In this document: positions 1,621 to 28,105 of the stretch, piece by piece
Numbering within the stretch: position 1 is the stretch's first letter
How the letters are laid out: the number at the start of each line of letters is the position of its first letter
Assembly (NCBI GenBank): GCA_963765495.1
Contig: CAVXWP010000001.1
Coordinates: forward strand, 576,001 to 640,000
Direction: 5' to 3'
From: Blastocatellia bacterium
Lineage (GTDB): Bacteria > Acidobacteriota > Blastocatellia > UBA7656
Length of the DNA stretch: 64,000 nucleotides
Notes under the pieces: model-generated
The model's database searches: none
What the model was told of the DNA's origin: nothing
Seen by the model: only the letters and a program-made list of their open reading frames with translations
Program-made: the position numbers and the translations under genes

Positions 1621-3879
1621 TCATATAAACAGCGGGGCCAGCACAAGCGTGATCGTCGAGAGCAGTTTGATCAAGACGTGCAGGCTCGGCCCGGCCGTAT
1701 CCTTGAACGGGTCTCCGACCGTATCGCCCACGACGGCGGCTTTATGCGCCTCGCTGCGCTTGCCGCCGTACATGCCTGTTTCGATGTATTTCTTGGCGTT
1801 GTCCCACGCGCCGCCCCCGTTGTTGAGAAACGTGGCTACGAGTATGCCGGTAATCGTGCCTACCATCAGCATCGCCGCTACCGCCTCAGCGCCGATGCCA
1901 AGCAAGCGAAACACAAGGCCGACGGCTATCGGCATACCGACGGCAAGCACCCCGGGCAAGACCATCTGCCGGAGCGCGCCTCGCGTCACTATGTCAACGC
2001 AGCGGGCATAATCGGGCTGGTCGGTCCCTTCGAGTATGCCGGGCTTTTCCTTAAACTGCCGTCGCACTTCGTTGATCACGGTGTAGGCCGCATTGCCCAC
2101 GGCCTTGATCGCAAAGGCCGAAAACAGAAAAACAAGCATCGCGCCCAACAGCCCGCCCACGAATACTTCGGGCTTGGCCAGATTGACCACGGCTATCTCT
2201 TCGTTTGTGCGGGGGTCGCGCATAAACATAGAGGTCTGTTCGTGCTCGGCAGGGCTTGAGGCAGAGGTTTGCGCTCTCGTCACATCAGAAGCGACAACGG
2301 CGGCAGGCTGCGGCCTTGTGTAGTTGCGAACCTCATCGAGGTAAGCCGAAAACAGAAGGAAGGCCGCAAGCGCAGCCGATCCGATGGCGTATCCTTTAGT
2401 CAGCGCCTTTGTAGTGTTCCCCACCGCATCGAGCCTGTCGGTCTTGGCGCGAATATCATCGGGTTGCCGGCTCATCTCTACGATGCCGCCCGCGTTGTCT
2501 GTGATCGGGCCAAAGGTGTCCATCGCGAGGATATAGGCGGCGGTGCCGAGCATGCCCATAGTCGCGACGGCGGTTCCAAACAGACCCGCGCCCGGTATGC
2601 CCGACATATTGCCCAGATAGTAGGAAGAGACTATGGCAATCGAGATGACGATGACCGGTAAGGCGGTGCATTCGAATGCGATTGCGATTCCGGTGATGAT
2701 ATTTGTAGCCGGTCCCGTCTGCGAGGCTTCTGCGATGGCTCTCACCGGGCCGTATTTGTATTCGGTGTAATATTGTGTGATATAGACGAATGCCACCGAA
2801 GTGGCCAGCCCGACCAGCCCGCAAACGAAAAAGTATATCCACGCGTTTGGCCTCTGCGGGCTGTAAAGTAGCCACCGCGAGCCGATGAGAAACCCTACCG
2901 CTGCAAGCGCGGTCGTGACATAATAACCGCGATTGAGCGCCTTCATCGGGTCGGCGTCTTCCTTAGTGCGCACCATCATCACACCGACTATCGAAGCGAT
3001 CAAACCGAACGCGCGCACGACCAGAGGGAAGAGCATCACGCCCAGCACTCCGTAACCGAAGGGGATGCCCCTTTGAGCGGCGAGCGTAGCAAGCCCCGCT
3101 CCCAGTATCATCGCTCCGATATTTTCTGCGGCGGTCGATTCAAACAGATCAGCGCCGCGACCGGCGCAGTCGCCTACATTGTCGCCCACGAGGTCGGCTA
3201 TGACGGCAGGGTTTCGCGGATCGTCTTCCGGGATGCCCGCCTCAACTTTTCCCACGAGGTCCGCGCCTACGTCTGCCGCCTTTGTGTAGATGCCGCCGCC
3301 CAGTTGCGCAAACAGCGCGACAAACGACGCCCCGAATCCATACCCCACGATCATGTAAGGAATGTCTTTGGGGTTTATGCCCACGACGTAATCCAGCACA
3401 GCATAGAGACCGCCTACGCCGAGCAGACTCATGGCTACGACGAACAGACCCGAAACCGCGCCGCCTCGCATCGCAATTTGCAAGGCGTCGTTGAGCGAAG
3501 TTCGCGCCGCCGAGGCCGTGCGGATGTTTGAACGGATCGAAACGAACATGCCGACGTAACCGGCTATGCCCGAAGAGAGAGCGCCCAGAATAAATGAGAC
3601 GGTCACATAACCGGCGAGCGGCAACGGGTTGACCGGATCGGCCGGGTTATGCGGACGAAGAAAGGCATAGAGCAAAAAGATCACAGCGGCAAAGACTACG
3701 CTCAACAGCCCTATGGTTTTGTACTGTCGTCTGAGAAAGGCTTCGGCACCCTCCTTGATGGCATTAGAGATAAATTGCATTTCCGAGGTGCCCGTGTCTT
3801 TGCTTAACACGTAGGATGTCAGCCAGCCCGCAAACGCTAAGGACAGAAGACTGATTACCAGAACCAGTGTCAGTTCCAT
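1621..3879 (-). CDS. hppA: Membrane-bound pyrophosphatase, probably K+-independent H+-translocating
   Basis: GGGIYTKAADVGADLVGKVE, DNVGDCAG, DTVGDPFKD motifs; GNTTKA has Lys at the K+-dependence site; start MELTLVL at 3879 after AAGAAGAGG. Confidence 0.95.
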   Translation of the reverse strand: MELTLVLVISLLSLAFAGWLTSYVLSKDTGTSEMQFISNAIKEGAEAFLRRQYKTIGLLSVVFAAVIFLLYAFLRPHNPADPVNPLPLAGYVTVSFILGALSSGIAGYVGMFVSIRSNIRTASAARTSLNDALQIAMRGGAVSGLFVVAMSLLGVGGLYAVLDYVVGINPKDIPYMIVGYGFGASFVALFAQLGGGIYTKAADVGADLVGKVEAGIPEDDPRNPAVIADLVGDNVGDCAGRGADLFESTAAENIGAMILGAGLATLAAQRGIPFGYGVLGVMLFPLVVRAFGLIASIVGVMMVRTKEDADPMKALNRGYYVTTALAAVGFLIGSRWLLYSPQRPNAWIYFFVCGLVGLATSVAFVYITQYYTEYKYGPVRAIAEASQTGPATNIITGIAIAFECTALPVIVISIAIVSSYYLGNMSGIPGAGLFGTAVATMGMLGTAAYILAMDTFGPITDNAGGIVEMSRQPDDIRAKTDRLDAVGNTTKALTKGYAIGSAALAAFLLFSAYLDEVRNYTRPQPAAVVASDVTRAQTSASSPAEHEQTSMFMRDPRTNEEIAVVNLAKPEVFVGGLLGAMLVFLFSAFAIKAVGNAAYTVINEVRRQFKEKPGILEGTDQPDYARCVDIVTRGALRQMVLPGVLAVGMPIAVGLVFRLLGIGAEAVAAMLMVGTITGILVATFLNNGGGAWDNAKKYIETGMYGGKRSEAHKAAVVGDTVGDPFKDTAGPSLHVLIKLLSTITLVLAPLFI

Positions 3880-4001
3880 AAATTGTTTAACCTCTTCTTT
3901 GAGACTATTACCGATCAAACGGATCGGAGTGATTACACAAGAATTGAGCGGCCATAACAGTTTCACGAACTGTCCCAGCCACTCCATAGAAAGACGCGCG
4001 A

Positions 4002-4337
4002 TCAGATTGAATAAGGCGGAGCGCGGTCTGCCGACCTTGGGGAGTGAAAGCAAAGAGGCCGCTGATCTAAAGAGATTGTGTGGCGGCCCCCGCAATTGGA
4101 GGGGATAAGGGTACTTTTGAGTGAAGCGGGGGCAACAGGCAACCGCAGCCGTTTCGTATCATTGCGATCCGGGGCCTGCTCTTGCGGGGTTGCCTCGATA
4201 GAAATTTTCGATGAAGCAGAGTGCTGAATGCGAGCCTGATTTCGGGTATAAAATTTCGTCTTTACGGACAAGGCAAGCAACACTATAGCCAACAATGCGC
4301 ACAGACACAGCAGCTTTGCATAGTTCGGTCGCTTCAT
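4002..4337 (-). CDS. Putative leader peptide (111 aa): N-terminal signal/TM segment and C-terminal RAPP arrest motif
   Basis: MKRPNYAKLLCLCALLAIVLLALSV... ending DRAPPYSI*; lies between a predicted promoter and hppA. Confidence 0.7.
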   Translation of the reverse strand: MKRPNYAKLLCLCALLAIVLLALSVKTKFYTRNQARIQHSASSKISIEATPQEQAPDRNDTKRLRLPVAPASLKSTLIPSNCGGRHTISLDQRPLCFHSPRSADRAPPYSI

Positions 4338-4347
4338 AAGAGAAAGC

Positions 4348-4376
4348 AGGATAGCAGTTGAAGAAAACTTAAACAA
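4348..4376 (-). promoter_or_regulatory. sigma70-type promoter for leader ORF-hppA unit
   Basis: TTGTTT-17 bp-TATCCT with extended TG; -10 box ends 10 nt before ATG 4337 (near-leaderless). Confidence 0.5.
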
Positions 4377-4411
4377 GAATTATCAGCTGATAAGTGATGA
4401 GTGATACGTGA

Positions 4412-5212
4412 TCAATTCTCGGGCGGGCGGCTGTATCCGAAGCCTTCGAGCAGCGCCTGTCCCTCATCGCTCAAGATAAACTCGACGAAACGCCCTGCTT
4501 GCTCCTGTTTGCCGGAAGCCTTTATGAGGGCCAGAGCCTGATCTATCGGTTGATGAAGACGCTCGTCTACTTCTATAAAGCGGCCTTCGCCCCGCGAAAC
4601 AAGCGCGAGCGGAATAAAAGCCGCATCGGCGTTGCCCGAGGACGCATACTGTCTGGTCTGCGCTACGTTCTCGCCGTAAACCACTTTAGGTTCGACCGCC
4701 GCCCATAGATTCAGCGCGCGTAAAGTCTCGACCGACGCCTGTCCATAAGGCGCGATGTCGGGCTTTGCGAGGGCTATGATCTTCACATCCGGCCCCGCGA
4801 GGTCTTCGATTCGATTTAGCGCGATGCGGCTTTCAGGCGGCGTCCACACAACCAGTTTGCCCCGCGCATACAGGGCGCGCGTTCCCGGCGCGATCAGCCC
4901 TTTGTCATTGAGTTGATCTACGTGCTCGACATCGGCCGAAGCGAAAACGTCAAACGGAGCGCCGTTTTCAATCTGTTTGGCCAGATTCGCCGTGGATCCG
5001 AAACTATAGGTCACTTTTATGCCCGTGCGTGAAGTGAATTGTTTTCCCAACTCTTCAAATGCATTGGTCAGGTTGGCGGCGGCGGCTACGGTGATTTCCT
5101 GAGCATCGGCCTCGCTCTCAGGTGAATGTGATCCCGAACAGCTTGCCGAAAAGAACAAAAATGCGGGCACGACCAGCGCAAAGAGTCTTCCAAAATTCTT
5201 GAATTGAGCCAT
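4412..5212 (-). CDS. modA: Molybdate ABC transporter substrate-binding lipoprotein
   Basis: ITVAAAANL, FGSTANLAKQIENGAPFDVFASA, APYG, GENVAQT; lipobox-like SASC. Confidence 0.92.
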   Translation of the reverse strand: MAQFKNFGRLFALVVPAFLFFSASCSGSHSPESEADAQEITVAAAANLTNAFEELGKQFTSRTGIKVTYSFGSTANLAKQIENGAPFDVFASADVEHVDQLNDKGLIAPGTRALYARGKLVVWTPPESRIALNRIEDLAGPDVKIIALAKPDIAPYGQASVETLRALNLWAAVEPKVVYGENVAQTRQYASSGNADAAFIPLALVSRGEGRFIEVDERLHQPIDQALALIKASGKQEQAGRFVEFILSDEGQALLEGFGYSRPPEN

Positions 5213-5293
5213 CGAATTTCCCTTTCGCGCTTTGATTTTATATTGCGGCCCTGTAATCTCAAATCTCATATTTGAAACCTAAAATTGAAGCCT

Positions 5294-13273: not shown

Positions 13274-13282
13274 AGAAAATAC

Positions 13283-13387
13283 CGTGATGCGTGATTAGTG
13301 ATGCGTGAAACGTGATTTACCAGAACGGCAAGCTGTCTTTAACAGCCACCTGCCTGAAAATCACGAATCACGAATCGCGAATCACTA
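13283..13387. repeat. Heptamer (CGTGATG)-armed palindromic element
   Basis: CGTGATGCGTGA... pairs with TCACGAATCACGAATC; core similar to copies at 19180, 21323, 47540. Confidence 0.85.
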
Positions 13388-19179: not shown

Positions 19180-19298
19180 GATGCGTGAATCGTGATGCGT
19201 GATGCGTGATTCCGAGACAGGCAATTATCTGTAACAAGTCTTCTGCCTCAAAGTCATGTATCACGATTCACGCATCACGATTCACGCGTCGCGCATCA
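19180..19298. repeat. CGTGATG-family palindromic element between kinase and regulator genes
   Basis: Heptamer arms; right arm supplies the final codons and TGA of the kinase gene. Confidence 0.85.
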
Positions 19299-28013: not shown

Positions 28014-28105
28014 ACGTGATGCGTGATGCGTGATGCGTGACCGGAAGCACCCGGCCCATCGAAGCCCGGTTGTAACTCTCACACATCACGTATCACGCAT
28101 CACGT
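28014..28105. repeat. CGTGATG-family palindromic element inside operon
   Basis: (CGTGATG)3 ... CATCACGTATCACGCATCACG. Confidence 0.8.

Follow-up and report, generated by a model that had tools for sequence, protein, structure and literature searches.

According to Fujiwara et al. (EMBO J 2025; PMC12992588), no 4-mers are excluded from bacterial proteomes more strongly than RAPP and RGPP. The two tetrapeptides accumulate at the C-terminal ends of small proteins that are secreted or reside in the membrane, and open reading frames (ORFs) carrying them precede genes well beyond sec/yidC, among them those for TonB receptors and copper genes. Arrest of the ribosome was shown there for seven peptides of Streptomyces lividans and for CruR, and whether the arrest regulates the downstream genes is posed in that paper as an open question. 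In Bordetella pertussis the stall on CruR (Bp2923, DUF2946/PF11162) has been reported to prevent Rho-dependent termination, keeping the downstream genes expressed (Roy et al., mBio 2022; PMC9426467). In the window, by which we mean the entire analysed stretch of 64,000 nucleotides (nt) from a Blastocatellia bacterium, an upstream ORF (uORF) of 111 amino acids (aa) with the C-terminal end DRAPPYSI* precedes hppA, a gene predicted to encode a membrane-integral pyrophosphatase. Based on its anatomy and on the other RAPP-tailed leaders of the genome, the uORF is regarded here as a plausible one-off candidate for an arrest leader, not as part of a conserved energy-sensing circuit.

The table of the top 30 uORF targets in PMC12992588 contains ubiquinol oxidase subunit II (152 RAPP versus 3 AAPP uORFs) as well as cytochrome ubiquinol oxidase subunit I and a cation:proton antiporter, so that RAPP leaders of bioenergetic and ion-transport genes are already catalogued. 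In the first-pass annotation leaders of this type were said usually to precede secA, secDF or yidC. A restriction of the class to sec/yidC genes no longer holds, since the same paper lists TonB, copper, oxidase and antiporter targets. A pyrophosphatase was not found as a downstream product in the text and supplement parts of that paper, whose enrichment table covers the top 30 groups, and the literature yielded nothing relevant that links a pyrophosphatase or hppA to a RAPP arrest peptide or an upstream ORF. RAPP leaders in front of non-Sec genes have already been published (PMC12992588), and the hppA uORF is a new, unconserved candidate of this known kind.

The 111-aa ORF with its basic N-terminus, hydrophobic stretch and DRAPPYSI* ending, the position of its RAPP codons and the start of hppA on the same strand, exactly 122 nt past the uORF stop, had been reported in the first-pass annotation and were all confirmed in the sequence (Table 1). 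The residues MKRPNYAK precede the hydrophobic segment LLCLCALLAIVLLAL and SVKTKFYTRNQAR follow it, approximately 80 hydrophilic residues lie between this segment and the DRAPPYSI ending, and three residues separate RAPP from the stop. The Kyte-Doolittle maximum over 15 residues reaches 3.30, which is the top value among all RAPP/RGPP-tailed ORFs of the genome. If read from the in-frame TTG at 4376 the uORF would comprise 124 aa. Among the sequencing runs listed as containing the region, none was an RNA run. The contigs of sequencing run X1 were identical to the window wherever they overlapped with it, while run X2 provided one 151-nt contig on 4288-4393 with four differences, which stops short of the RAPP end.

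The whole genome (7.3 Mb, 17 contigs) was scanned and all ORFs of at least 40 aa were listed, the 5,361 ORFs of at least 200 aa serving as a rough proxy of the proteome. In these long ORFs the ratio of observed to expected occurrences is 0.47 for RAPP (18 versus 38.2), 0.16 for RGPP and 0.36 for RAGP, whereas the control motifs AAPP and AGPP reach 1.19 and 0.95, respectively. Thus, the organism avoids the stalling motifs. The depletion of RAPP and RGPP agrees with the one published for Acidobacteriota, for which a mean bias of 0.12 and 0.08, respectively, is given (PMC12992588).

Intergenic-type ORFs, defined by a length of 60-200 aa and an overlap of at most 30% with a long ORF, amount to 5,011, and 581 of them have a hydrophobic N-terminus. 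RAPP is found within the last 15 residues of seven intergenic-type ORFs, all of which belong to these 581, and in the tail of none of the 4,430 ORFs without a hydrophobic N-terminus. Furthermore, it is the commonest tail 4-mer of the hydrophobic ORFs. Of the nine permutations of R, A, P and P without overlap with RAPP, each is found in none or one of the hydrophobic-ORF tails (mean about 0.4), which suggests that about 0.4 RAPP-tailed hydrophobic ORFs are to be expected per genome by chance. The six leaders other than the hppA uORF all precede a co-directional gene or operon; a co-directional gene within 600 nt was detected for only 286 of the 581 hydrophobic ORFs.

These six leaders are plainly genuine: five fall into two groups within the genome, and for the sixth there are homologues elsewhere in the family. 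Two of them match DUF2946, the CruR family, one above the Pfam cut-off (E 2e-5) and one just below it (E 3e-4); each is located upstream of a TonB-dependent receptor gene and both end in S-D-R-A-P-P. Three further leaders are paralogous, rich in cysteine and assigned to no Pfam family. They end in SSPRAPP or PSPRAPP, lie upstream of genes for TonB-type or outer-membrane barrel proteins and have homologues in 43 of the 52 other genomes of the family, some of these relatives ending in RGPP or RSPP rather than RAPP. In the stretch G000 C16:31892-36000 the receptor-like gene behind one of the Cys-rich leaders encodes only 393 aa. After it come two ORFs on the opposite strand, of about 300 aa, and then another outer-membrane-like gene, so that an inserted element may have interrupted this receptor.

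The sixth leader precedes a gene for a CPA2 cation:proton antiporter, with two small ORFs in between. The members of its family (125-138 aa, no Pfam or NCBIfam family), which lie upstream of CPA2 antiporter operons, resemble each other in their basic N-terminus and hydrophobic segment, in a middle part that is conserved and in the ending ...SPPxDRAPP plus 1-12 residues. Homologues were detected in 13 of the 52 other family genomes, and RAPP is kept in all 11 relatives that were fetched (nine with DRAPP, two with GRAPP) despite identities of 28-40%. The next gene in seven of these 11 encodes a conserved protein of about 165 aa, which in the one relative locus annotated is followed by the CPA2 antiporter. 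When a 12-member profile of the family was compared with the ORFs of the genome, the hppA uORF was absent from the 15 best matches (to E 3.1).

The depletion of the motif, the enrichment of the seven leaders and the conserved leader families indicate that the lineage has a working device in its RAPP-tailed leaders. As judged from its sequence the candidate uORF shares its size, its layout and the D before RAPP with the other leaders of the genome. It is 111 aa long versus 125-145 aa in the other six, and the D occurs in the uORF, in both DUF2946-like leaders and in nine of the 11 relatives of the antiporter leader.

Table 1. Features of the uORF-hppA locus (positions in the window) and of RAPP leaders elsewhere in the genome (contig positions)
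Feature	Position	Strand	Remarks
Candidate arrest-leader ORF (uORF)	4337-4002	minus	ATG 4337 to TGA 4004-4002, 111 aa
Hydrophobic segment LLCLCALLAIVLLAL	4313-4269	minus	15 residues, uORF residues 9-23
RAPP codons CGC GCT CCG CCT	4025-4014	minus	R105 A106 P107 P108, then Y-S-I and stop
Imperfect hairpin	3984-3946	minus	16 pairs; begins 17 nt past the uORF stop; AAUUCUUGUGU comes next
Shine-Dalgarno-like AAGAGG	3891-3896	minus	11 nt before the hppA ATG
hppA, membrane-integral pyrophosphatase	1621-3879	minus	752 aa, ATG 3879; Pfam PF03030 (H_PPase), E 6e-266
Promoter-like TTGTTT (4376-4371), 17-nt spacer, TATCCT (4353-4348)	4348-4376	minus	7 of 12 matches to the consensus
modA-like gene, molybdate-binding protein	4412-5269	minus	TIGR01256, E 7e-61; Pfam SBP_bac_11
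Heptamer repeat (ATCACNN)	4412-4392	minus	3 units, directly after the modA stop, runs into the palindrome
Perfect palindrome TTATCAGCTGATAA	4393-4380	minus	14 nt, at the end of the heptamer array
Three paralogous Cys-rich leaders	G000 C1:508271-508708, C16:31262-31684, C1:773366-773800		C-x3-CC ... CCC cluster
Antiporter leader	G000 C5:110132-110533	plus	500 nt before the CPA2 cation:proton antiporter gene

We infer the translation of the uORF, the stall, its effect on hppA and a releasing signal, and propose the following course of events. As a lineage-specific RAPP/RGPP arrest leader the uORF would be translated from ATG 4337, and its N-terminal hydrophobic segment would direct the growing chain to the membrane. 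Three codons before the stop the ribosome would pause, its P site holding R-A-P and its A site the second Pro codon; by analogy to the toeprint of CruR the predicted stall codons are those of Pro107 (4019-4017, P site) and Pro108 (4016-4014, A site). The parked ribosome, or its release, would modulate the expression of hppA 122 nt downstream. A CruR-like mechanism, in which the halted ribosome protects the transcript against Rho-dependent termination, appears to be the likeliest route, and unmasking of the ribosome-binding site a less likely one. By default for this class, the release would be brought about by the pulling force that arises from the translocation or insertion of the chain. The interpretation that the uORF is genuine as an arrest leader of the RAPP type and in addition controls hppA is preferred here tentatively, with doubt and support close to balance and doubt slightly ahead, while it seems fairly probable that the uORF is at least genuine if the case without control of hppA, discussed below, is counted in.

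A number of results weigh against this interpretation, most of which concern conservation. The search for the uORF in 60 related genomes gave a best E value of 0.005, with all matches in unrelated frames, a word-indexed search of 5.8 billion protein clusters retrieved nothing at E<=1, and an exhaustive phmmer search of 1.84 billion representatives produced no match at E<=0.001. The uORF belongs to no Pfam or NCBIfam family and is the sole one of the seven leaders without relatives. Two candidates on metagenome contigs, both without a RAPP tail, turned out to be spurious, one being antisense to a 271-aa gene and the other located inside an 853-aa permease gene. The 532-nt intergenic DNA between modA and hppA has counterparts in the relatives only as pieces of up to 48 nt, many of them at its heptamer-repeat end. 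Two of the other leaders are contained in the public protein collection, where the uORF itself appears to lack a gene call. It has furthermore to be considered that RAPP alone does not suffice for arrest and that the neighbouring N-terminal residues play a part (PMC12992588).

The first-pass annotation had proposed to look for a conserved ORF with a transmembrane segment and RAPP/RGPP upstream of hppA homologues, and had named its absence in advance as a result that would speak against the idea. Such absence is what was found. No hydrophobic RAPP-tailed ORF was detected upstream of the pyrophosphatase genes in 27 related loci, comprising 26 loci in 22 related genomes and the second copy of the organism itself (1.5 kb of upstream sequence, 891 nt for one truncated locus), nor within 1.5 kb upstream of hppA in 80 diverse loci from species-representative genomes (43-75% identity). 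As genomes of the same genus were missing from the set searched, both from the 60 relatives and from the 52 family genomes, the lack of homologues is partly a sampling gap.

The absence of relatives in every search is what would be expected if the uORF were a chance ORF, that is, if the 532-nt spacer originated from the insertion of hppA and the frame were either untranslated or translated without a role. The permuted motifs suggest about 0.4 chance cases per genome, and the uORF is the one leader of seven that has no relatives; the missing gene call points in the same direction, as does the charge distribution around the hydrophobic segment, which differs from that of the other six leaders. 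However, the neutral rate seems to be low as none of the 4,430 non-hydrophobic intergenic ORFs has a RAPP tail, and the uORF conforms to the leader class in its size, in the distance from RAPP to the stop, in the D preceding this motif and in having a co-directional gene 122 nt downstream. Taking furthermore into account that the lack of homologues partly reflects the sampling, a chance origin is considered unlikely, although well short of negligible.

Two signals for expression also speak for a chance ORF and against a translated leader: no Shine-Dalgarno (SD) sequence precedes the ATG at 4337, and the codon-usage score of the uORF is -0.06 and thus non-genic. A clear SD sequence is, however, also lacking in the other six leaders, and low codon-usage scores (-0.19 to 0.04, whereas long genes average 0.17 in 111-codon windows) characterise all seven including the DUF2946-like ones, so that the score does not discriminate. 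The promoter-like hexamers indicated in the first-pass annotation are present but have to be regarded as weak, since only 7 of their 12 positions agree with the sigma-70 consensus and a promoter scan with a threshold of 9/12 gave no sites across 3500-4700, the spacer between uORF and hppA included. An Rfam scan of the same region revealed no RNA families at E<=1. In the two other frames of the same strand, RGPP follows directly on an in-frame TTG (4095) that lies upstream of the hppA ATG, and a 49-aa ORF (4308-4159) ends in RAGP. These RAPP-like motifs at 4095-4159 are probably chance products of Arg/Ala/Gly/Pro-rich codons.

A stable RNA structure downstream of the uORF is the imperfect hairpin listed in Table 1. 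The 77-nt stretch containing it has a folding energy of -23.7 kcal/mol (z = -2.43), with one of 200 shuffled sequences being as stable. It lacks a U-tract and was not flagged by the terminator scan; the hairpin may be terminator-like or act as a stabiliser. An equivalent hairpin was not found after the stops of the other six leaders, and no RNA design is common to the seven. A ribosome stalled at 4019-4014 could not block the hairpin because it lies beyond the reach of the ribosome.

Based on the predicted folds, no coupling between the stall and the initiation of hppA translation could be established. In a 201-nt fold (z = -1.69) the stretch 4060-4052 pairs with the SD sequence of hppA. Masking of the SD sequence by this stretch was rejected, because the pairing is lost in a 496-nt fold and 72% of 200 shuffled sequences are equal or better. 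The best duplex with the SD sequence amounts to -11.6 kcal/mol compared with a mean of -12.7 for the shuffled sequences, and with the monosome or disome footprint of the stalled ribosome held single-stranded the predicted pairing of SD and AUG stays unchanged. Neither result supports control through the ribosome-binding site. Since opening of the footprint does not alter this pairing, an unmasking of the SecM type is without computational support.

The hairpin and the missing link to the SD sequence bear on a further possibility, namely that the small membrane protein or arrest peptide encoded by the uORF is real but exerts no control over hppA. In this case either the hairpin would end the uORF transcript and hppA would have a promoter of its own in the spacer, or the uORF would belong with modA, the gene for a molybdate-binding protein upstream of it. 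A stable hairpin 17 nt past the stop and out of reach of a stalled ribosome would suit the former case, and orthologous hppA genes manage without such a leader; nevertheless, the hairpin has no U-tract and was not called as a terminator, and no promoter-like sites were detected in the spacer. The latter case is in line with modA being a metal-uptake gene, given the ties of many published RAPP uORFs to metal homeostasis, but inspection of the listed ORFs by eye revealed no RAPP-tailed ORF after the modA orthologues in 11 related loci. Considering also that the other six leaders all precede a co-directional gene or operon, a genuine uORF without influence on hppA seems decidedly improbable.

In summary, the proposal of the first-pass annotation that a RAPP arrest leader controls hppA stood in so far as the anatomy of the class, the six further examples in the genome and the depletion of RAPP/RGPP are concerned, but found no support with regard to conservation and to a computed link to hppA.

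If the uORF is an arrest leader that acts on hppA, the nature of the releasing signal has to be considered. The idea of a force sensor requires the translocation of the C-terminal 80 residues of the uORF product. According to the positive-inside rule the topology of a membrane segment can be judged from the charges flanking it. The hydrophobic segment of the uORF is flanked by three K/R residues before and four after it, and this ambiguous topology counts against the leader interpretation; in the other six leaders the N-terminus is strongly basic and the C-flank neutral or acidic. Translocation is thus less clear-cut than in the other six. The more specific scenario of a sensor of the proton motive force (PMF), in which the export of the chain would depend on the PMF and low energisation of the membrane would prolong the RAPP stall and raise the synthesis of the pump driven by pyrophosphate (PPi), is speculation and appears very doubtful. 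If it applied, the cell would switch to PPi as an emergency source of membrane energy, and the locus would represent a newly evolved, lineage-specific arrest circuit on a primary pump that travels as a two-gene module.

Alternatively, the stall could be tuned by a ligand or by the redox state as in CruR, with C82, H86, C96 and H98 of the uORF product binding a metal or forming a disulfide. The other leaders of the genome have CxxC motifs or Cys-rich clusters, which would be in accordance with such a sensor, but the hppA uORF contains no CxxC, does not match DUF2946, and its four residues are located 7-23 positions before R105. The ribosomal exit tunnel holds about 30-40 residues. The four residues would therefore reside inside the tunnel during the stall, which disfavours metal sensing in the manner of CruR. 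Even with the precedent that CruR senses copper via its CXXC motif (PMC9426467), a ligand or redox sensor is hardly credible here.

The start of hppA is supported by its orthologues, which align from residue 1. The gene product exceeds the cut-offs of two NCBIfam models, NF001953 and TIGR01104, named "sodium-translocating pyrophosphatase" and "V-type H(+)-translocating pyrophosphatase", so that these models do not settle which ion is pumped. Its GNTTKA motif presumably marks the K+-independent, H+-pumping type. This type of hppA is patchily distributed, being found at E<=1e-60 in three of the 52 other family genomes. Upstream of the nearest orthologues (87-91% identity over the first 160 residues) lies either tyrS or another pyrophosphatase gene. 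The closest orthologue (G017:C1127; 91% over 160 aa) is located about 100 nt downstream of a gene for a different membrane pyrophosphatase, the two genes forming a tandem pair on the same strand.

In four of 11 related modA loci (G023, G006, G013 and G017) the next gene after modA codes for an APC-type permease, and the orthologue of this permease gene is located downstream of hppA in the window (1221-1). As modA and the permease gene adjoin in these loci, the uORF and hppA together appear as an insertion of about 3.2 kb. The insertion fits either a two-gene module or an insertion junction in which the frame is open by chance. The modB gene of this genome was detected on another contig.

The heptamer repeat behind modA is one of 278 tandem arrays of ATCACNN (mostly ATCACGC or ATCACGT, 3-10 units) in the genome, compared with none in a shuffled contig. 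Further arrays in the window are located at 13282-13302, 19190-19210 and 28014-28105, and among the arrays listed an arrangement as inverted pairs, with about 70 nt between the partners, is frequent.

The more solid yield of the analysis lies at the level of the genome, with at least six other RAPP leaders and an antiporter-leader family in which RAPP is invariant across genera. If both the stall and an effect on hppA were demonstrated, the membrane pyrophosphatase would join the genes governed by RAPP arrest peptides, and the uORF would provide a case for the question, posed in PMC12992588, of force-dependent release outside Sec/YidC. Being an orphan, the uORF could also exemplify the easy recruitment of a RAPP-ended frame as a regulator.

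The uORF resembles the class defined in PMC12992588 in being small (<300 aa), in having RAPP near its C-terminus and a co-directional gene downstream, and its host, like the hosts described there, has a proteome depleted in RAPP/RGPP. With respect to the N-terminal signal or transmembrane segment typical of the class, the 15-residue stretch of the uORF has a Kyte-Doolittle value of 3.30, and its flanks of +3/+4 make the orientation ambiguous. The RAPP groups published in PMC12992588 recur across many genomes, whereas the candidate in front of hppA is a single instance.

Like CruR, which has an export signal (PMC9426467), the uORF lies upstream of a gene and carries RAPP at its C-terminus. It differs from CruR in lacking any Pfam match at E<=0.01 (no families and hence no PF11162) and a CXXC motif, and the downstream gene belongs to PF03030 and is neither that of a TonB-dependent transporter nor a copper gene.

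With SecM, VemP, MifM, ApdA, ApdP and ApcA (PMC10951233) the uORF shares a C-terminal motif of the RAPP/RAGP type, and its hydrophobic N-terminal segment may correspond to their localisation signal. The force-dependent release known for these substrates was the model adopted in the first-pass annotation. Unlike the substrates that monitor Sec or YidC, it is followed by hppA instead of secA, secDF or yidC, and the predicted folds offer no supported structure that would expose the SD sequence. As the hppA product is not a localisation machinery, a feedback in which the product relieves the monitor is not evident. The closest counterpart within the same genome is the antiporter-leader family, which is of similar size, has likewise a basic N-terminus and a hydrophobic segment, ends in DRAPP and precedes an ion-transport gene; that family is conserved, including its middle part, whereas the hppA uORF is an orphan.

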